Below are positions 49,943 through 64,000 of a stretch of 64,000 nt of DNA, piece after piece. The stretch covers positions 144,389 to 208,388 of the forward strand of contig DASXVJ010000023.1 of assembly GCA_036504335.1 (NCBI GenBank), written 5' to 3'. Positions within the stretch are counted from its first letter, which is position 1. Every line of letters starts with the position of its first letter. Origin of the DNA: Thermoanaerobaculia bacterium. Its GTDB lineage: Bacteria; Acidobacteriota; Thermoanaerobaculia; UBA5066. The notes below the pieces were generated by a model. That model was not told the origin of the DNA. It did not search any database and worked only from the letters and a program-made list of their open reading frames with translations. A program made the position numbers and the translations under genes.

Positions 49943-51175
49943 TTGCCTGAGATAGAGATCCGATCGCGATCGAACCGCATCGACGCCCTCGACGTCGTGC
50001 GCGGGCTCGTCATGGTCGTGATGGCGCTCGACCACGTGCGGGCTTACGTCTCGAGCGTCCCGTTCGACCCGGTCGACATGGCGCGCACGTACCCGGCGCT
50101 CTTCACCACGCGCTGGATCACGCACTTCTGCGCGCCCGCGTTCAGCTTCCTCGCGGGGACGGGCGCCTTCCTGTCCCTCTCGAGGGGGAAGACGCCCGAG
50201 AGCCTCGCGTGTTTCCTCGCGAGCCGCGGCCTCTTCCTGATCGCGCTCGAGTTTGTCGTCCTCAGGTTCGTGTGGCTCTTCAACCTCTGGCCCATGGGCT
50301 TTCTCGCGACGCTCTGGTCGCTCGGGATCGCGATGCTCGTCCTCGCACTCCTCGTGCGGATGCGCCTCGGACCGTGGCCGATCGCGGCGGCCGGGGCCGT
50401 CCTCGTCGCGGGGCACAACGCGTTCGATTTCGTCGACAGACTGCCGCTGACGGGCTTCGCCGCTGCCGCCTGGAAGGTCCTCCACGCGGGCGGGATGATC
50501 CCGTTCGGGACGCCGCCGCCCGGGTTCCCGCTGCCCGGACTCTTCACCCTCGAGGTCGGGTATCCGGCGATCCCGTGGCCCGGCGTCATGGCGCTCGGCT
50601 ACGCGTTCGGCGCCGTCCTCGCGAAACCGGGGAAGGAGCGCCGGCGCGTCGTTCTCGCTCTCGGCTTCGCGGCGACCGTCGCGTTCGTCGTCCTGCGCCT
50701 CGCGAACGCTTACGGCGACGCGCGGGCCTGGGCGCCGCAGAGGAGCGCCGCGATGACGCTCGCCGCTTTCCTGAATTGCGAGAAGTACCCGCCGTCGCTG
50801 TGCTTCCTCCTCATGACGCTCGGCCCCGTCCTGATGGTTTTTGCGTGGTGCGACCGGACGCCGGGCCCAGCCGGGCGCGCACTCTCCGTCTATGGGCGCG
50901 TCCCGATGTTCTTCTACGTCGCGCACCTGCCCCTCGTCCACCTCCTCGCCGTCGCCGTCGCGGCCGTGCAGGCGGGCGGTCTCTCGGGGCCTCTCGTGCG
51001 CTGGGCGGCGTTCCAGTCGCCGTCGTTCGTCGTCCCGCCGCCCTCCGGGTTCGGCCTTTCCCTCCCGGGCGTCTACGCGCTCTGGATCGGCGTCGTCCTC
51101 GCGCTCTACGTGCCCTGCGTGCGCTACGGCGCATTCAAGGCGAAGAGCCGCGCGGTCTGGACGACGTACCTCTAG
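49943..51175 (+). CDS. DUF1624/HGSNAT-like acyltransferase-3 family membrane protein
   Basis: RIDALDVVRGLVMVVMALDHV N-terminal motif; about 10 TM helices. Confidence 0.65.
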   Translation: MPEIEIRSRSNRIDALDVVRGLVMVVMALDHVRAYVSSVPFDPVDMARTYPALFTTRWITHFCAPAFSFLAGTGAFLSLSRGKTPESLACFLASRGLFLIALEFVVLRFVWLFNLWPMGFLATLWSLGIAMLVLALLVRMRLGPWPIAAAGAVLVAGHNAFDFVDRLPLTGFAAAAWKVLHAGGMIPFGTPPPGFPLPGLFTLEVGYPAIPWPGVMALGYAFGAVLAKPGKERRRVVLALGFAATVAFVVLRLANAYGDARAWAPQRSAAMTLAAFLNCEKYPPSLCFLLMTLGPVLMVFAWCDRTPGPAGRALSVYGRVPMFFYVAHLPLVHLLAVAVAAVQAGGLSGPLVRWAAFQSPSFVVPPPSGFGLSLPGVYALWIGVVLALYVPCVRYGAFKAKSRAVWTTYL

Positions 51176-57754: not shown

Positions 57755-58642
57755 TCAGCGTCGCGACTCGCCGAGCGTGATCAGGACGACGGCCCCGACG
57801 ATCACGGCGGCGGCGACGAGCGTCCGCGTCGAGACCGGCTCGGCGGCGAGGAGCCAGCCCAGGAACACGGCGACGACCGGGTTCACGAACGCGTACGTCG
57901 AGACGAGCGCCGGCGAGGCGGCGCGCAGCAGCCAGATGTACGCCGTGAACGCGACGAGCGAGCCGAAGACGACGAGGTAGGCGACGGCCGCGAGCGACCG
58001 GCCCGAGACGAGGGAGGGCGAGAAGCGCGCCCACTCGCCCGCGAACCCGGAGGCGCCGCCGAGGAGGGCGCCGCCCGCGAGCATCTGAAGGGCGGTCGCC
58101 TGGAGCGGCGACGCGGACGGCTGGAAGTGGCGCGAGAGGAGGGAGCCGAGCGCCCACGCGAAGGCCGCGAACAGGACGGCCGCGGCGCCCCCGAGGTCCA
58201 CGCGCTCGCCCCCGAGGCCGGCCGGCCCCACGAGGAGAACGACGCCGATGACCCCGAGCGCGACGCCGAAGAGAGCGCGGCCGGACGGACGCCGCCGCTC
58301 CTGGGGGAGCGTCGCCTGCAGGAGCACGATGAAGAGCGGCTCGACGGCGACGAGGAGGGCCGCGAGGCCGGAGGCGATCCGCAGCTCGGCCCAGACGACG
58401 CCGCCGTTGCCGCAGAGGAGCATGAGCCCGCCGGTCAGGAAGGCCGGGCCGAGGTCGCGAAGGGCGATGCGCGGCGCGCCGCGATATTTCACCCATGCGA
58501 GGAGGAGGCTGCCGGCCACGAGGTACCTCGCCGACGCCATCGTGAACGGCGGAATCGTCTCGAGGGCCCAGCGGATCGCGAGATACGTCGAGCCCCAGAC
58601 GACGTAGATGACGAGGAGCGCGGGGGCGACGCCGCGTTTCAC
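57755..58642 (-). CDS. EamA/DMT-superfamily transporter
   Basis: Ten TM helices in two EamA repeats. Confidence 0.8.
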   Translation of the reverse strand: MKRGVAPALLVIYVVWGSTYLAIRWALETIPPFTMASARYLVAGSLLLAWVKYRGAPRIALRDLGPAFLTGGLMLLCGNGGVVWAELRIASGLAALLVAVEPLFIVLLQATLPQERRRPSGRALFGVALGVIGVVLLVGPAGLGGERVDLGGAAAVLFAAFAWALGSLLSRHFQPSASPLQATALQMLAGGALLGGASGFAGEWARFSPSLVSGRSLAAVAYLVVFGSLVAFTAYIWLLRAASPALVSTYAFVNPVVAVFLGWLLAAEPVSTRTLVAAAVIVGAVVLITLGESRR

Positions 58643-60510
58643 GGGGCGATCATCGCCTCCCAGACCGCGCGGGACATCTTCCGCGCCGCGGCGTTGACGC
58701 GCTCGCGGCCCGTTTCGTTCGCACCGAAGTCGTTCGCGAGGAGGACGAGGACGTACTCCCGCCCGTCCGGCAGGCGGACGACTGCGGCGTCGTGCTGGAC
58801 GGACGAGATCGAGCCCGTCTTGTGCGCGACGACGGCGCCCGACTGCGGGTGCAGGCCGGCCGGAATCTCCTCGTTGAACGTCTGGCCGATCAGGATCTCC
58901 CAGGCCTTCGCCTTCGCGGCCGCCGAGAGCTTCGGCGTCCGGACGACGGCTTCCATGACGGCGCCCATCCCCGCGGCGTCCGTTTCGTTGTTCATGCCCT
59001 TCTCGAACGCCCTGGTGTCCTCGACGCAGCGCCGCACGTGGACGGTCGGCGCCCCGAGCGTGTCCGTGAACCTCTGGACCTCGGCGGGGCCGAGAAGCGT
59101 CAGGAGGATGTTCGTCGCGAGATTCGACGAGCGGACGATCATCTCCCGCGCGAGGAACTCGAGCGTGGCCGTCTTTCCGGCGCGCGCGACCGTCGGACCG
59201 TCGTTGTCCTCGAGGCCGATCGAGAACGGCGAGCCGTCCACGAGGCTCCTGAACTCGTTCTTCACGGGCAGCTCGTCCGCGAGCTTAAGCGACCCCTCGT
59301 CGACTCGCCGGAGCAGCTCGAGGAGGACGGGCGTCTTCATCGTGGACGCGGCGTGCATGACCAGAGAGGGATTCTGCGAAACCGAGAGACCCGTCGAGAG
59401 GTCTTTGAACCAGATGCCGAAGCGCGCCCCGCTGGCGCGAGAGATTTCTTCGAGTGTGGATTCGAGCCGGCGCACCTTCGCGGCGTCGAGACGCGCCCCG
59501 AAGCCCTCTTCACCTTCTAAGAAAGTCTTCTCCTTCTCTTTCTTCAATCTCCTCGCGTACCGGAACAGAGGCTTCAGGAACGGGCTGTCGTAGGGCGTGA
59601 TCTGCACGCCCGGCACGTTGTGCCGCGTGGATTGCAGCACGGTCCCGTCGCCGATCCACATGGCCTCGTGGTCGATCTTGTCCTCGGTGCCGAAGAAGAG
59701 GAGGTCGCCGGGCCGGAGCTTCTCGAACGCGACGGGTACGAGCTGCGGGTCCTGGAACGCCTGCTCGAAGCTGTTGCGCCGAAGGGTGACGCCGTGCTCC
59801 GAGAAGATCCGCGTCATGAGCCCCGAGCAGTCGAAGCCGAGAGGCGTCGTCCCGCCCCACGTGTAGGGCGCGCCGAGGAAGCGCTTGCCGAACGCGATCC
59901 AGTCGGAGGGGGACTTGAGAGGAAGAGAAGACGAAGATTCTTTGAAAGGGAAGATGGAGACGTCGCGCGCGGCGACCCAGCCCCTGCGCCCGTCCGGAAG
60001 AAGCGCCCTCACCCAGGAATACGCGCCGCTGGCCCCGCGCTCTTCACCTTCTAAGAAACCTCCGACTTCCAGCGTCACACCGACCGGAGCCGTGAGAAGC
60101 GGCTTCTGCTTCGTGAACGAGGGCGACGAATAGATGTGCGCGAAGGTCGAAGAAACACGTACCACTTTCGCATGCTGGGGTAGCGCCTGCGCGCCGTCAT
60201 CTCGACGGATCGCCCGTTCAGGAATCCAAGCCACCTCCCCCGCGGCGGTCCTCACTTTCGCAAAGCCGGCCGCGTCCTCGAGGACCGTCACGCGGTCGCC
60301 CAGGATCGCCTGGTCGTCCACGCTCGACGTCTCGTCGGGTCTCACGAAGAGGTCCTGGACCGCCGCGACGACGATGGCCGTCTTCGCAGGTGCGGGTGTC
60401 GCGCCGGGAGATGCGGAGAGAGAGTTTTCTTCGAATGAGAAGAGAAGAAGGGCCGCGGCGAGCGCGCGAATGGCGGAGGTGCGGCGAACGGGGTTTCCTT
60501 CGAGGCGCAT
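58639..60510 (-). CDS. Secreted SH3b-SH3b-NlpC/P60 (YkfC-like) endopeptidase fused to a C-terminal class-A beta-lactamase-like serine hydrolase domain
   Basis: Two SH3b domains. NlpC/P60 catalytic FDCSGLMTRIF...H. C-terminal SxxK (ASTMK), SxN (SSN) and KTG (HKTGS) motifs. Confidence 0.8.
   Translation of the reverse strand: MRLEGNPVRRTSAIRALAAALLLFSFEENSLSASPGATPAPAKTAIVVAAVQDLFVRPDETSSVDDQAILGDRVTVLEDAAGFAKVRTAAGEVAWIPERAIRRDDGAQALPQHAKVVRVSSTFAHIYSSPSFTKQKPLLTAPVGVTLEVGGFLEGEERGASGAYSWVRALLPDGRRGWVAARDVSIFPFKESSSSLPLKSPSDWIAFGKRFLGAPYTWGGTTPLGFDCSGLMTRIFSEHGVTLRRNSFEQAFQDPQLVPVAFEKLRPGDLLFFGTEDKIDHEAMWIGDGTVLQSTRHNVPGVQITPYDSPFLKPLFRYARRLKKEKEKTFLEGEEGFGARLDAAKVRRLESTLEEISRASGARFGIWFKDLSTGLSVSQNPSLVMHAASTMKTPVLLELLRRVDEGSLKLADELPVKNEFRSLVDGSPFSIGLEDNDGPTVARAGKTATLEFLAREMIVRSSNLATNILLTLLGPAEVQRFTDTLGAPTVHVRRCVEDTRAFEKGMNNETDAAGMGAVMEAVVRTPKLSAAAKAKAWEILIGQTFNEEIPAGLHPQSGAVVAHKTGSISSVQHDAAVVRLPDGREYVLVLLANDFGANETGRERVNAAARKMSRAVWEAMIAP
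59506..59524. repeat. Low-GC 19-mer CTCTTCACCTTCTAAGAAA, copy 1
   Basis: Identical to 60030..60048. Encodes TFLEGEEG in the NlpC/P60-to-beta-lactamase linker. Confidence 0.6.
60030..60048. repeat. Low-GC 19-mer CTCTTCACCTTCTAAGAAA, copy 2
   Basis: Identical to 59506..59524. Encodes GFLEGEER between the SH3b domains. Confidence 0.6.
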
Positions 60511-60535
60511 CCCGGGATTCCACCATAATCGCCGC

Positions 60536-61675
60536 ATGACGCAGCCCATTTCCCGCCGCGGACTCATTCTCTCTTCCGCCGCCGCAGCCGCCTCCTCCGC
60601 CCTCCCGGAAGCCCTGTTCGCGGAATCCCCGTCCCGTCCGTCTGCGGCCCCGGTCTCCCTGTCCTACCGCCCGCTCATCCTGAAGCTCGCGCACACGTGG
60701 ACGATCGCCCGCGGCTCGTCGGACGAGAAAAAGAACGGGCTCCTCACGATCACGTCCGAGGGAGTGACGGGCTACGGCGAGGCCGCCGCGAACAAGCGCT
60801 GGGGCCAGAGCTGGGAGACGTCGGAGGCCGCGTACGCGAAGGTGGAAAAGGCCGTCGCCGGCCTGTCGCCGTGGGACCACCTGACGTGGCTCGAAAAGGC
60901 CGAGGCCGCCGCCGGGAACGACCACGAGGTCGTCGCGGCGCTCGACATCGCGCTCTGGGACTGGAAGGGCAAGCGGCTCGGGCGCCCGGTGCACCAGCTC
61001 CTCGGCGTGCCCGCGCACGGGATGCCGGTGACGACGTTTTCGATCGGCATCGACACGGCCGACGTCATGAAGCAGAAGACGAAGGAAGCGGCCGCGTTCC
61101 CGAAGCTCAAGATCAAGATCGGCCTTCCGAGCGACGAGGAGAACATCGCGGCGATCCGCTCGGTCTCGAGCCAGGCGCTCACGGTGGACGCGAACGAGGG
61201 CTGGGCGACGGTCGACGAGGCCCGCAGGAAGATCCTCTGGCTGAACGGCGTCAAGCCGCTCTACCTCGAGCAGCCGATGCCGGCCGCGCTGGACGCCGAG
61301 ATGGTGAAGCTCAAGGGCCTCGCGGCGTACCCCGTCCTCGGCGACGAAGGGGTCCTGACGGCGGCGGACGTCGCGAAGAAGGCGGGCCTCTTCGACGGCG
61401 TCGTCGTGAAGCTCGCGAAGGCGGGCGGCATCACGCGCTCGTGGGAACAGGTCGTCGTCGCGCGCGCCGTGGGCCTGAAGACGATGTGCGGCTGCATGAT
61501 CGAGTCCTCCGTCGGGATCGCCGCGGGCCTCGCGCTGGGCCCGCTCTTCGACTGGCTGGACCTCGACGGGAACCTCCTGCTCGCGAAAGACCCGTTCACG
61601 GGGCTCCGGATCGACAAGGGCGTCTGGGCGATGCCGGAAGGCCCGGGCCTCGGCGTGACGCCGGTTCAGGCCTAG
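60536..61675 (+). CDS. L-Ala-D/L-Glu epimerase (enolase superfamily, YkfB/YcjG-like), Tat signal
   Basis: Twin-arginine signal SRRGLILSSAAAAASSA. MR/MLE fold with KIKIG (Lys) and DANEGW metal ligands. Divergent from the NlpC/P60 gene with about 25 bp between starts. Confidence 0.8.
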   Translation: MTQPISRRGLILSSAAAAASSALPEALFAESPSRPSAAPVSLSYRPLILKLAHTWTIARGSSDEKKNGLLTITSEGVTGYGEAAANKRWGQSWETSEAAYAKVEKAVAGLSPWDHLTWLEKAEAAAGNDHEVVAALDIALWDWKGKRLGRPVHQLLGVPAHGMPVTTFSIGIDTADVMKQKTKEAAAFPKLKIKIGLPSDEENIAAIRSVSSQALTVDANEGWATVDEARRKILWLNGVKPLYLEQPMPAALDAEMVKLKGLAAYPVLGDEGVLTAADVAKKAGLFDGVVVKLAKAGGITRSWEQVVVARAVGLKTMCGCMIESSVGIAAGLALGPLFDWLDLDGNLLLAKDPFTGLRIDKGVWAMPEGPGLGVTPVQA

Positions 61676-62571
61676 GCGGGGAGAACCAGCCGCGGCCGTT
61701 CGCCCGAGCGCGTGCGGCCGCGCGACTTGAGGAGGGCCTGGTCGGCGCGCGCGATCGTCTTCTCGAGGGCCTCGCCGTCCTCCCGCGCCGCCCAGCCCAT
61801 GGAGAACGGGACGATCAGCTCGCGGTCGGCCGTGGCCTGGAGGCGCCGGGCCGCGAACTCCGTCGCCGCCGCGTCGGCCCCGTCGAGCAGGAGGAGGAAC
61901 TCGTCGCCGCCCATACGGACGGCCGTTTCCTCGGCGCGCGTCTGGCGCATGAGGAACCTGGCGACGCGGTTCAGGACGGCGTCGCCCGCCTCGTGGCCGA
62001 ACTCGTCGTTGTACTGCTTGAAGTAGTCGAGGTCGACCATGATGCAGCCCCACGCACCCGAGAAGGACGGATGGGAGCCGCTCGCGTGTCGGCGCTCGAA
62101 CTCGTTCAGGTACCGCCGGTTGAAGCAGCCCGTGAGCGGGTCGCGCAGGCTCTGGTCGAGGAGGCGCTGCTCGAGGAGCTTGCGGTCCGTGATGTCGATC
62201 AGGATGCCGTGAAAGAAGACCTCGCCGGTCGCGGGGTCCTTCGCGCACGTGGCCGAATCGATGACGGTGCGAACCTCGCCTCCGGCGCGGCGGATCTCCA
62301 TCTCGAAGTCGCGGACCACGCCCTCCCGGTGGAGGATCTCGAGCTCGGCCTCGCGGCGCGCGACGTCGACGACGAGGTCCGCGGCCCTGCAGGCCCTGAG
62401 CGCGTCGAGCGACGACACGCCGAACATCGCGAGAAACGCGCGGTTCGCGTCGAGAACGTGTCCGTCGCGGTCCGTGACGTAGATCCCCTCGCGGAGATCC
62501 CGGACGAGGCCGCGCAGCGTCTCGGCGTCGTCGAGACGGGAAAGCCTGCTGGGCATGATGGGCGGGCGCAT
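61672..62571 (-). CDS. PAS-GGDEF diguanylate cyclase
   Basis: PAS domain (IYVTDRDGHVLDANRAF). GGDEF motif RMGGDEFLLLL and RYGGEEF-type site. Confidence 0.8.
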   Translation of the reverse strand: MRPPIMPSRLSRLDDAETLRGLVRDLREGIYVTDRDGHVLDANRAFLAMFGVSSLDALRACRAADLVVDVARREAELEILHREGVVRDFEMEIRRAGGEVRTVIDSATCAKDPATGEVFFHGILIDITDRKLLEQRLLDQSLRDPLTGCFNRRYLNEFERRHASGSHPSFSGAWGCIMVDLDYFKQYNDEFGHEAGDAVLNRVARFLMRQTRAEETAVRMGGDEFLLLLDGADAAATEFAARRLQATADRELIVPFSMGWAAREDGEALEKTIARADQALLKSRGRTRSGERPRLVLPA

Positions 62572-62596
62572 CCTATAAGAGACCGCCCCTCGGAAA

Positions 62597-64000
62597 TCAA
62601 TCCCTTCCGGAAAGGCCCTTTTTTCGCAGGAACTCGGACATTTCGAGTCCGCGGCGGATGACGTCGTTCCACGGAAAGAGGGCGCCCGGGTCGTCCTTGC
62701 GATCCGGAGCGATGTGCTCATGGCCGGCGATCCAGGGTGCGGGGATGTCGAACATCGCCGTCAGGACGCCAACGAGGCGGACGACCGTCTCGATCTGCGC
62801 CGGCGAGAACGGGACCTTGTTCCCGTCGCCGGTGATTTCCACGCCGACCGACGTCCGGTTCAGCGCGAGGCGGCCGTGGAGCGTCGAGGGCCCCGCGTGC
62901 CAGGACCGGTGCTCGAGCGAGACGAACTGGTAGAGGCGGCCGTCGCGCCCGACGAGGAAGTGGGAGGACACGCGGCTCTCGGGCTTCTGGAAGAGCGCGA
63001 TGCACTCCTCGTCCGTGGCCTGTGACGTGTGGTGGAGGATGAGCGCGGAGATCGGCTCGATCTTCGACGGCCGGAACCCTTCCCACCACGAGTTCGGCAT
63101 CGGGATCAGGCACGCGTCGCGCGTCTCGCCGCCCGCGAGCGCCCACGCGTCCCAGAAGCGCCGGTCCGTGTCGCGCCAGACGCGGACGAGGTTCGACGGC
63201 TGCGCCGCCGCGCGCGCCTCGGCGAGCGTCGTCTCCATGCGGGGGACGGCCGGACGCAGCGCGGGAACGGCGGGCGGCTCGGGCGGGAGCGCGACGTCCG
63301 GAAGCGTCTCGGACCACGCGTTCACGACCGCCGCGGCGATCTCGCCCATCGCGCGCGTCGCCTGTGCGGTCGCGCCCTTCTCGTCCGGGATGCGATCGGC
63401 GAACGCGACGAGGACGAACCGGCCCTTCTTCGTCGTGAGGATGCCCGAGTCGTTGCGGACGCCGCCGTAGCTGCCTGTCTTGCCGGCCCAGGTCGAGCTC
63501 TTTTCGTCGAGGAGCAGGCGGGGCAGCCGGTCGCGCGTGTGCTGGACGGCAAGGAGCTTCGCGACGACGCGGTCGGAGGCGGGGTCGAGGAGCGTGCGCG
63601 TCGCGACGCGGCGGTAATACTCGGCGGTCGCGTTCGGCGTCATGACGCCGAGCGGCGCCCATTTTCCCTCGCCCTTCCCGAGGTCCGGGATGCGGCCGAC
63701 GAGGCGGATGTCCGGAAGGCCGAGCTTCGCCATGCGCGCGTTCACGGCGTCCGCGCCGAAGAGGTCGATGAAATGGTTTGCGGACGTGTTGTCGGAGATC
63801 GCGACCATGAGCGAGAGGAGATCGCGGTTCGTGGGCGTGAGGCCGGGGTCGAATTCGTCGAGCATCCCGGAGCCCGCGGCGAGGCTCTTCGCGGAGAGCT
63901 TCCAGCGGTCGGTCAGGTCCAGCGTGCCTTCGGCCTCGCGCGCGGCGGCCTCGGCGAGGAGGGCGATCTTGATGACGCTCGCGGCCTCGAAGGGCTCGGC
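62597..64000 (-). CDS. Class-A beta-lactamase-like domain fused to an AmpD/AmiD-type N-acetylmuramoyl-L-alanine amidase (Amidase_2); 5' end beyond window
   Basis: By-hand extension upstream of the track ORF shows ...FEAASVIKIALL (SxxK); then SDN (ISDNTSAN) and KTG (AGKTGS). The C-terminal half has HHTSQ...ECIALF...HFLVGRDGRLYQFV...HAGPS...GVEI...H, an Amidase_2/PGRP Zn motif. Confidence 0.75.
   Translation of the reverse strand, partial: AEPFEAASVIKIALLAEAAAREAEGTLDLTDRWKLSAKSLAAGSGMLDEFDPGLTPTNRDLLSLMVAISDNTSANHFIDLFGADAVNARMAKLGLPDIRLVGRIPDLGKGEGKWAPLGVMTPNATAEYYRRVATRTLLDPASDRVVAKLLAVQHTRDRLPRLLLDEKSSTWAGKTGSYGGVRNDSGILTTKKGRFVLVAFADRIPDEKGATAQATRAMGEIAAAVVNAWSETLPDVALPPEPPAVPALRPAVPRMETTLAEARAAAQPSNLVRVWRDTDRRFWDAWALAGGETRDACLIPMPNSWWEGFRPSKIEPISALILHHTSQATDEECIALFQKPESRVSSHFLVGRDGRLYQFVSLEHRSWHAGPSTLHGRLALNRTSVGVEITGDGNKVPFSPAQIETVVRLVGVLTAMFDIPAPWIAGHEHIAPDRKDDPGALFPWNDVIRRGLEMSEFLRKKGLSGRD

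Follow-up and report, generated by a model that had tools for sequence, protein, structure and literature searches.

Among the closest described counterparts of the locus analyzed here is the YkfA-YkfB-YkfC pathway of Bacillus subtilis and Bacillus cereus, in which a YkfC-type cysteine peptidase is found beside a YkfB-type dipeptide epimerase. The YkfC subfamily is marked by two residues, Tyr118 in the SH3b1 domain and Asp256 in the NlpC/P60 domain, which bind the free L-Ala amine of the substrate (Xu et al., 2010; PMC2954226). Signal peptides are absent from the YkfB proteins of Bacillus, and the ykfB-ykfC linkage has previously been noted in Acidobacteria (PMC2954226). The cytoplasmic recycling route of Escherichia coli (AmpG, AmpD, LdcA, MpaA, YcjG, and PepD) follows the same logic as the cluster described below, from an amidase to cleavage of the gamma-D-Glu-mDAP bond and then to an epimerase. 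Two further points of comparison are the periplasmic lipoprotein amidases AmiD of E. coli and AmpDh2 of Pseudomonas aeruginosa (Amidase_2 family) and PBP-A of Thermosynechococcus elongatus (Tll2115; 2j7v), which is a DD-carboxy/endopeptidase (PMC11189452).

In this work, we analyzed a window (a stretch of DNA of 64,000 nucleotides) from an uncultured soil/sediment acidobacterium, represented by a Thermoanaerobaculia MAG (Acidobacteriota). Near its end lies a variant of this known pathway in which two of the proteins are uncharacterised but genuine fusions with domains of the penicillin-binding type. Our main reading, to which we assign a probability of roughly 0.55, is that these genes form an extracytoplasmic module that dismantles peptidoglycan stem peptides and is conserved in Thermoanaerobaculia and Holophagales. 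It builds on observed features, namely the domains present, catalytic motifs that are intact, export signals, synteny kept among relatives, and a phyletic range that is narrow. The genes and domains named in the preliminary description were all recovered by open reading frames and a Pfam domain scan, and are as follows.

57755..58642 (-): EamA-family transporter; 4-bp overlap between its start and the g1 stop
58639..60510 (-): g1, 623-aa exported SH3b-SH3b-NlpC/P60 protein (YkfC-like) fused to Beta-lactamase2
60400..60510 (-): g1 Sec-type signal peptide (MRLEGNPVRRTSAIRALAAALLLFSF...SLSA), assigned by inspection of the sequence
60208..60351 (-): g1 SH3b1 (Pfam SH3_16, dipeptidyl-peptidase SH3)
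59560..59874 (-): g1 NlpC/P60 catalytic domain with Cys228, His281, and Gln293 (P0001 numbering)
58738..59418 (-): g1 Beta-lactamase2 domain
60536..61675 (+): g2, 379-aa dipeptide epimerase with a Tat signal (enolase superfamily, MLE subgroup)
60536..60622 (+): g2 twin-arginine signal peptide (MTQPISRRGLILSSAAAAASSALPEALFA), with the SRR motif in 19/19 orthologues
61672..62571 (-): g3, PAS-GGDEF diguanylate cyclase with the GGDEF motif intact; same strand as g4 and downstream of it
62597..64000 (-): g4, lipoprotein with Beta-lactamase2 and Amidase_2 domains; runs past the window end
63401..63997 (-): g4 Beta-lactamase2 domain with SVIK, SDN, a GRIPD loop, and KTG
62684..63055 (-): g4 Amidase_2 domain (AmiD/AmpDh2-like)

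The start of g1 was taken as in P0001, a 100% identical protein from the same MAG contig; the open frame runs on to 60567. The window end removes the first ~86 residues of g4, which on the source contig (L001) encodes a 553-aa lipoprotein with the lipobox LSS-C and would start at ~64258. Because of the overlap between the transporter start and the g1 stop, these two genes are probably in one operon, and the transporter is kept downstream of g1 in Thermoanaerobaculia loci.

The product of g1 has Pfam matches to SH3_16 (E 2e-9), NLPC_P60 (2e-20), and Beta-lactamase2 (3.8e-46). The second SH3b has a weak match (SH3_YKFC_2nd, E 0.0019) and is included in the alignment of residues 81-340 with B. 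cereus YkfC (3h41; 260 residues, E 1e-26). The two analyses bear out the proposed domain order of SH3b-SH3b-NlpC/P60 with a C-terminal beta-lactamase-like domain. The SH3b1-SH3b2-NlpC/P60 architecture is common to the YkfC subfamily, and g1 also matches its catalytic Cys-His-polar triad and its Tyr226, Trp228, Asp237, Arg255, and Ser257. Among 118 homologues of g1, Cys228, His281, and Gln293 are invariant, as are the motifs PYTWGG, FDCSG, and R-x-S. However, g1 has Glu92 at the Tyr118 position and Asn246 at the Asp256 position, and its identification as a YkfC orthologue was rejected for lack of both subfamily-defining residues. The same replacements are found in close homologues (Glu in 115/118 and Asn in 117/118); four distant fusion proteins retain Tyr and Asp, and a fifth (P0241) has Thr and Asn. 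Given the absence of this pair, the substrate of g1 may differ from that of YkfC. The hydrophobic N-terminus is kept in the orthologues of g1, one of which (L016) has a lipobox instead.

The product of g2 carries MR_MLE_N/C domains, and its best solved relatives are the Bacteroides thetaiotaomicron epimerase (3iji; 5.7e-61) and E. coli YcjG (3e-30). With 3h41 as the best solved relative of the N-terminal half of g1 and an L-Ala-D/L-Glu epimerase as that of g2, the suggested YkfC/YkfB-type pairing was supported. The epimerase hallmarks are present, namely the KxK and Lys acid/base residues, the Asp/Glu/Asp metal ligands, and the DxD motif, and the segments LKIKIG, VDANEGW, LEQP, GDE, KLAKAGG, and DLDG are kept in comparison with 3iji and 1jpd. 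The TIARGSS segment of g2 is aligned with VIARGSR of YcjG, and the IARGS Arg is thus shared, like the KxK, metal ligands, and DxD, with YcjG and the Bacteroides enzyme (3iji/3ijl/3ijq). In YcjG, this Arg lies in the 20s loop and binds the Glu side chain. Two features set g2 apart from the solved epimerases. First, it scores below the NCBI equivalog cut-offs (PRK15129, 125 bits vs 343), its best NCBIfam match being the N-acetyl-D-Glu racemase DgcA (193 bits vs a cut-off of 400). Second, it has a 41-residue Tat extension in which the twin-arginine motif ISRRGLIL leads into a hydrophobic stretch and an AxA-like cleavage site, and SRR-x-L-[IL] is present in 19/19 orthologues examined. This conservation favors the predicted Tat export of the epimerase, as had been proposed.

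Each of g1 and g4 contains a beta-lactamase-like domain in which, as previously noticed, the SxxK, SxN, and KTG motifs are intact. These are S389-T-M-K392 (ASTMK), S461-S-N463 (SSN, not SDN), and K564-T-G566 in g1, which also has H573-D574 and a loop R494-C-V-E497-D498; those of g4 (Pfam Beta-lactamase2, 1.7e-45) are SVIK, SDN, and KTG. The identity between the two domains is only 28%, and the two fusions are therefore independent, in agreement with the original proposal; the domains also belong to different subclades and have different nearest structures. For g1, the nearest characterised relative is PBP-A (70 bits vs 46 for the best beta-lactamase), whereas the best match of g4 is the uncharacterised 4ewf. 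The g1 domain and PBP-A have in common the class-A-like fold, the SxxK/SxN/KTG motifs, and the lack of Glu166, with Leu158 at the aligned position in PBP-A. They differ in that PBP-A is a stand-alone protein, confined to cyanobacteria, whose SxN motif is SDN and whose omega loop is short, whereas the g1 domain is fused and acidobacterial, and its clade is marked by SSN, by an invariant RGVED in a longer loop, and by an HD pair that follows KTG. By these comparisons, the fused domains are candidate DD-carboxypeptidases or DD-endopeptidases.

The intact motifs would also fit genuine beta-lactamases, which would provide antibiotic defence beside periplasmic cell-wall turnover enzymes. Many class-A beta-lactamases are among the matches to g1 and g4, and the omega loop of the g1-type clade is near class-A length (15 residues in g1). 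This loop has a Glu-Asp pair (RGVED) one residue past the Glu166 position, with E at aligned position 167 in 101/122 representatives and D following it in 121/122. The g1-type clade may thus use a shifted general base and have real beta-lactamase or other hydrolase chemistry. An AlphaFold2 model of g1 (mean pLDDT 50.4, pTM 0.44; from a 48-sequence alignment at 71-86% identity to g1) was too poor for a fold search and for reading the active-site geometry or the direction of Glu497. However, the class-A Glu166 position is aligned with Val in g1 and Ile in g4, no Glu is aligned there in either domain, and the NCBIfam bla_class_A scores (103.8 bits for g1 and 75.3 bits for g4) are well below the cut-off of 200. 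The nearest characterised relative of the g1 domain being a PBP, and the repeated fusions of its clade to amidases, NamZ, M14, and D-Ala-D-Ala dipeptidase pointing to peptide substrates, we regard a role as true beta-lactamases as distinctly improbable.

These other fusions of the g1-type clade include Amidase_3, NamZ, Peptidase_M14, D-Ala-D-Ala dipeptidase, and class-C-type domains. Partnership with cell-wall enzymes is, for this beta-lactamase-like clade, a theme that extends beyond the two cases described here, and it ties the clade, by association, to the processing of cell-wall fragments. Proteins of this clade carry the JGI label "beta-lactamase class A". Another role for such domains would be non-hydrolytic, either tethering substrates that end in D-Ala-D-Ala or sensing beta-lactams, and thereby controlling the partner hydrolase. 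Penicillin-binding folds act as sensors in BlaR/MecR, and a signaling gene (PAS-GGDEF) is kept in the cluster. However, the full catalytic set (Ser, Lys, Ser-x-Asn, and Lys-Thr-Gly) is invariant across >100 homologues and 122 clade representatives, which is typical of active enzymes, and no transmembrane signaling domain is attached. We consider this regulatory role highly improbable, and favor PBP-type peptidases.

The second fusion was described as joining such a domain to an AmiD/AmpD-type amidase, and this was upheld. The Amidase_2 domain of g4 (Pfam E 1.2e-29) aligns best with AmpDh2 (4bj4) and AmiD (2bh7), with E 2e-19, and its zinc ligands (His, His, and Asp) and catalytic Glu and Lys are intact. 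The residues H409/H410, E474, H513, K521, and D523 are kept in at least 100 of 101 homologues, and the lipobox L-[SA]-[SAG]-C is kept in orthologues. In common with AmiD and AmpDh2, g4 has the lipoprotein signal and the zinc and catalytic residues. It differs from them in the additional N-terminal Beta-lactamase2 domain and in that Pfam found no C-terminal PG_binding domain, the Amidase_2 match stopping 28 residues short of the C-terminus.

MAGs of Thermoanaerobaculia and Holophagales were the only source in which the full-length fusions were found, and the epimerase is always their neighbor. Each fusion architecture occurs in >100 clusters (90% identity) drawn from many independent samples. 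The possibility that the fusions are mis-assemblies or read-through gene calls was rejected, as the architecture is shared by >100 independent clusters and contigs. Neither a characterised enzyme nor a publication was found for either fusion, which is in line with the suggestion that the architectures are undescribed in reference model organisms, within incomplete literature coverage. The searches on fusion architectures, PF13354 biology, and Tat-exported dipeptide epimerases returned no description of the fusions, which at such coverage is weak evidence, and beta-lactamase is not among the partners listed in a broad review of the architectures of cell-wall hydrolases.

The g2 and g1 genes form a divergent pair in every locus with upstream DNA available, and g4, the PAS-GGDEF gene, and a NagX-like gene usually adjoin this pair. 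The PAS-GGDEF protein mentioned in the preliminary description is encoded by g3; its gene is kept in the cluster across relatives and is predicted to be co-transcribed with g4. Six loci of relatives have, next to the cluster, genes for MurQ (324 bits, above its cut-off of 168), a sugar kinase of the BadF type, and a NagA-like protein; homologues of these three were not found within the window and are not adjacent to the cluster in the source genome. This synteny, together with that of the NagX-like gene, reinforces the peptidoglycan role first suggested for the cluster. The Holophagales clusters are also linked to a putative outer-membrane beta-barrel that carries a CarboxypepD_reg domain. Because export signals are kept in all three enzymes (the g1 signal peptide, the g2 Tat motif, and the g4 lipobox), the cluster is predicted to serve periplasmic catabolism or salvage, unlike the cytoplasmic route of B. 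subtilis and E. coli.

The predicted location of every enzyme in the cell-envelope compartment would also suit autolysins that remodel the cell's own sacculus in growth or division, instead of acting on released or foreign fragments. AmiD/AmpDh2-type amidases are able to act on polymeric peptidoglycan, and the co-transcription of a diguanylate cyclase with g4 is compatible with such a function. However, sacculus remodeling has no use for a dipeptide epimerase, and the conserved linkage to the MurQ/NagA/kinase catabolic genes and, in Holophagales, to the outer-membrane beta-barrel argues for catabolism. Furthermore, SH3b1 occludes the active site in the YkfC-type architecture, which admits free peptides alone (PMC2954226). 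Sacculus remodeling is therefore quite unlikely in our view, and stem-peptide catabolism is preferred.

In the pathway that we propose, the lipoprotein g4 would act as an AmiD/AmpDh2-type zinc amidase that frees stem peptides from the MurNAc of muropeptides. The YkfC-like cysteine peptidase of g1 would then cleave the gamma-D-Glu-diamino-acid bond of the freed peptides to give L-Ala-D-Glu, which the Tat-exported epimerase g2 would convert to L-Ala-L-Glu, a dipeptide manageable by ordinary peptidases and transporters. The class-A-like domains of g1 and g4 would be PBP-type, D-Ala-specific DD-carboxypeptidases and/or DD-endopeptidases, stripping terminal D-Ala or opening D-Ala-mDAP cross-links. 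By such trimming, both pentapeptides and dimers joined by cross-links would become substrates of the partner domains. The sugars would pass to MurQ, the kinase, and NagA, whose genes adjoin the cluster in many relatives but lie elsewhere in the source genome. All of the enzymatic activities are inferred, as are the sequence of the steps and the purpose of salvage or foraging. Compared with E. coli recycling, all steps are predicted to occur outside the cytoplasmic membrane, the gamma-D-Glu cleavage is by an NlpC/P60 rather than an M14 enzyme, and two steps are on bifunctional fusions. Compared with the Bacillus Ykf pathway, the cluster lacks YkfA (S66), g1 has an additional serine-hydrolase domain and Glu/Asn in place of Tyr118/Asp256, and the epimerase is predicted to be Tat-exported.

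No S66 enzyme (YkfA/LdcA type) is encoded in the conserved cluster, and the fused serine-hydrolase domains could instead be LD-carboxypeptidases that convert tetrapeptides to tripeptides in its place. We know of no enzyme of the class-A-like fold that cleaves an L-D bond, which counts against this idea. The signature of the clade (SSN, RGVED, and HD) is unlike PBP-A or beta-lactamases and compatible with a new specificity, and the YkfA step comes before YkfC in B. subtilis (PMC2954226). However, PBP-A, the characterised protein that comes nearest, acts as a DD-peptidase, and both domains, being from different subclades, would need to have gained the same unusual specificity. We consider LD-carboxypeptidases unlikely, and DD-peptidases remain our preferred assignment. 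A broader reading, which we put forward tentatively as a possibility below even odds, is that the g1 domain represents a large uncharacterised class-A-like clade (SxxK/SSN/RGVED/KTG/HD) that trims stem peptides, possibly with a novel specificity such as that of an LD-carboxypeptidase. Together with the Tat-exported epimerase, this would amount to fully periplasmic stem-peptide catabolism in Acidobacteria that feed on cell-wall debris, maybe wired to c-di-GMP through the PAS-GGDEF protein.

If the main reading is true, stem peptides would be fully dismantled outside the cytoplasm, including the D-to-L epimerisation that has hitherto been described for cytoplasmic enzymes only. A physiological substrate could also be assigned to a sizeable clade, related to the class-A beta-lactamases, that lies between PBPs and beta-lactamases. 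This would bear on the evolution of beta-lactamases and on the counts of "beta-lactamase" genes in soil resistome surveys. For the abundant uncultured Acidobacteriota, the cluster would provide a route for the use of bacterial necromass.

The end of the window encodes two proteins, g1 and g4, in which a class-A beta-lactamase-like domain is fused to a cell-wall hydrolase, together with an epimerase (g2) and a PAS-GGDEF protein (g3). P0001, a database protein 100% identical to g1, is encoded on a contig of 357 kb from a Thermoanaerobaculia MAG (Acidobacteriota). This contig (L001; window coordinate = 70511 - L001 coordinate) was used to read beyond the window end, where the first ~86 residues of g4 fall. 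The features are:

58639-60510, minus strand: g1, 623 aa, with SH3_16, NLPC_P60 (E = 2e-20) and Beta-lactamase2 (E = 3.8e-46) in Pfam
60208-60351 and 59560-59874: segments of g1 with Glu92 and Asn246, respectively
58639-58642: 4-bp overlap of the g1 stop with the start of an EamA transporter gene
60536-61675, plus strand: g2, 379 aa, with MR_MLE_N and MR_MLE_C domains
61672-62571, minus strand: g3, PAS-GGDEF protein
62597 to ~64258, minus strand: g4, with Beta-lactamase2 (1.7e-45) and Amidase_2 (1.2e-29)
~64390-65475 (L001 5036-6121), just past the window end: NagX-like 361-aa membrane protein, divergent from and upstream of g4
~49943-51175: second HGSNAT-type gene

Read on L001, the full g4 open frame has 553 aa and an N-terminus with a lipobox (LFSLSS|C). 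In NCBIfam the 361-aa membrane protein resembles NagX (137 bits, below the cut-off), and it matched no Pfam family. The genes are packed very tightly: g1 and g2 diverge from starts only 25 bp apart (60511-60535), so each promoter must sit within the neighbouring gene, and the stops of the convergent genes g2 and g3 share 4 bp (61672-61675). Genome G+C around the region is 70-74%, and within g1 (59000-60500) it falls to 0.64-0.65 compared with 0.70-0.74 in the flanks.

The N-terminal half of g1 aligns with B. cereus YkfC (3h41) over 260 residues that span both SH3b domains and the peptidase (E = 1e-26). Cys228, His281, Gln293, and most substrate-site residues of g1 are invariant in 118 homologues. 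The YkfC subfamily is defined by the pair Tyr118 and Asp256 (Xu et al., PMC2954226), whereas the g1 pocket has Glu92 and Asn246 at these positions, as do close homologues (Glu in 115/118, Asn in 117/118). For this reason, g1 was rejected as a YkfC orthologue and is named YkfC-like. The preliminary description had likened g1 and g2 to the ykfC/ykfB pair of B. subtilis; this holds for the adjoining of a YkfC-like protein and an epimerase, but not for the signature residues. Tyr and Asp are kept in four distant fusion proteins (38-47% identity), and the Holophagales-type representative of the fusion has Thr/Asn. The replacements of Tyr118 by Glu and of Asp256 by Asn appear to be correlated, a swap that may have shifted the acidic group to the opposite wall of the S2 pocket.

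Both beta-lactamase-like domains keep the SxxK, SxN, and KTG motifs (STMK/SSN/KTG in g1, SVIK/SDN/KTG in g4). They share 28% identity and differ in their nearest solved structures, namely PBP-A of Thermosynechococcus for g1 (70 bits vs 46 for the best true beta-lactamase) and the uncharacterised 4ewf for g4 (96 bits). The two fusions are therefore independent events, and the class-A-like assignment and independent origin claimed from the sequence were both borne out. In an alignment with PBP-A and TEM-1, the position of Glu166, the general base of class-A beta-lactamases, is Val in g1, Ile in g4, and Leu158 in PBP-A. PBP-A, a DD-carboxy/endopeptidase, has no such glutamate in its omega loop (PMC11189452). 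The NCBIfam class-A scores, 104 bits for g1 and 75 bits for g4, fall far short of the cut-off of 200.

Directly after the Glu166 position, g1 has Glu-Asp. The clade of the g1 domain (122 representatives among the top matches, at 50% identity) has the signature SxxK/SSN/R-G-V-E-D/KTG/H-D, with the E of RGVED in 101/122 and the D in 121/122. This Glu may act as a shifted general base, on which the structure model of g1 (mean pLDDT 50) is too poor to judge. Stand-alone class-A-like proteins of ~300 aa (P0255-P0390) with SSN/RGVED/KTG/HD make this a large clade, and none of them appears to be functionally characterised. The uncharacterised Veillonella structure 4hes has the HD pair in common with the clade, but not the Glu.

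Among the best 150 representatives of the g1-type domain, many are stand-alone relatives of ~300 aa (36-46% identity). Fusion partners in this set are Peptidase_M14 (four, two of which match MpaA faintly), class-C-type Beta-lactamase domains (three), and one each of an AstE/AspA-type domain, Amidase_3, the exo-muramidase NamZ, a D-Ala-D-Ala dipeptidase (DdpX-like, 114 bits), Peptidase S9, Peptidase M1, an amidohydrolase, and a phosphodiesterase. Most of these partners handle cell-wall fragments or peptides, which supports, by association, a peptide-trimming role for the clade. Given the several partner types, fusion of a beta-lactamase-like domain to cell-wall hydrolases is a recurrent design that is not peculiar to this locus.

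For the amidase half of g4, AmpDh2 and AmiD are the nearest relatives (E = 2e-19), and the zinc and catalytic residues are kept in 100 or more of 101 homologues, in agreement with the AmpD/AmiD type first proposed. In two related MAGs (L004, 6336-7905; L007, 4260-5796), the Beta-lactamase2 and Amidase_2 halves of the g4 orthologues lie in separate frames as overlapping gene calls; P0230 is the 327-aa first half of a split orthologue with a nonsense tail. Either the gene has truly split in these MAGs, or both carry the same sequencing frameshift in the Pro-rich linker. The closest relatives of g2 are the Bacteroides thetaiotaomicron dipeptide epimerase (3iji, E = 5.7e-61) and then E. coli YcjG (3e-30), and g2 retains the KxK motif, metal ligands, DxD motif, and IARGS arginine. 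A dipeptide substrate is only probable, because g2 scores under the NCBI equivalog cut-offs and its top NCBIfam match is the related racemase DgcA.

A twin-arginine motif is present in 19/19 g2 orthologues, consistent with the Tat export initially noted. The g4 lipobox is conserved in orthologues, as is the g1 signal peptide (replaced by a lipobox in one). From these export signals, g1, g2, and g4 are all predicted to function outside the cytoplasmic membrane. The recycling route of E. coli, in contrast, is cytoplasmic. The predicted export of g2 also sets it apart from the Bacillus YkfB epimerases, which lack signal peptides (PMC2954226).

Synteny was compared by tblastn across 21 loci. The divergent g2/g1 pair was found at all loci having upstream DNA, g4 and a PAS-GGDEF gene usually adjoin, and the 361-aa NagX-like gene occurs in almost all related loci. 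In six loci (L003, 4291-6991; L004; L007; L012; L014; L016), the cluster runs on into genes for a BadF-type sugar kinase, a MurQ etherase (324 bits, cut-off 168), and a NagA-like deacetylase, which in a Holophagales genome (L003) follow the gene for a predicted outer-membrane beta-barrel protein carrying a CarboxypepD_reg domain. A homologue search found no kinase, MurQ, or NagA genes beside the cluster or in the window in the genome studied here, and its closest relatives (L005 and L006) likewise lack them beside the cluster. In Thermoanaerobaculia and Holophagales alike, a PAS-GGDEF gene directly adjoins g4 and shares its strand; here it is downstream (61672-62571), and the Holophagales gene (L003 8199-10004) is larger, non-orthologous, and upstream of g4 with a 4-bp overlap.

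In a word-indexed search, the g1 architecture came up in over 120 clusters with identities of 69% or higher, which their sources label just "serine hydrolase" or "beta-lactamase class A". When 1.84 billion representatives were scanned exhaustively with HMMER, the full architecture appeared in only ~5 clusters at 50% identity, with identities down to 40%. A genome scan (one genome per species, 185,579 species), which took two NlpC/P60 peptide patterns as seeds, ranked full-length matches first and is not a formal census, gave 15 near-full-length loci and two cut by a contig end among the matches listed. All 17 are Acidobacteriota MAGs (Thermoanaerobaculia and Holophagales), and the remaining listed matches cover the NlpC/P60 region alone. 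The g4 architecture gave 149 matches, and all of those with a source name are from Acidobacteriota. Both architectures thus remain phyletically narrow.

We consider extracytoplasmic processing of stem peptides slightly favored (probability about 0.55). The g4 amidase would release stem peptides from muropeptides, the fused PBP-like domains would take off terminal D-Ala, open 4-3 cross-links, or both, the g1 NlpC/P60 domain would liberate L-Ala-D-Glu, and g2 would convert this to L-Ala-L-Glu. The products would be imported, perhaps through the co-transcribed EamA protein, with the sugars passing to MurQ and NagA. Which bond the serine-hydrolase domains cut is more doubtful than this overall picture. 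Less probable rival readings are that the fused domains are LD-carboxypeptidases standing in for YkfA, true beta-lactamases, or non-catalytic modules, or that the cluster serves autolytic remodelling. The literature search, with incomplete coverage that makes it weak evidence, found no description of these fusions or of a Tat-exported dipeptide epimerase. The enzyme families and the logic of the pathway are established. The novelty lies in the two fusions, in a route predicted to be exported throughout, epimerase included, in the changed YkfC pocket, and in the conserved diguanylate cyclase link, which suggests a conserved tie of c-di-GMP signalling to the processing of cell-wall fragments.
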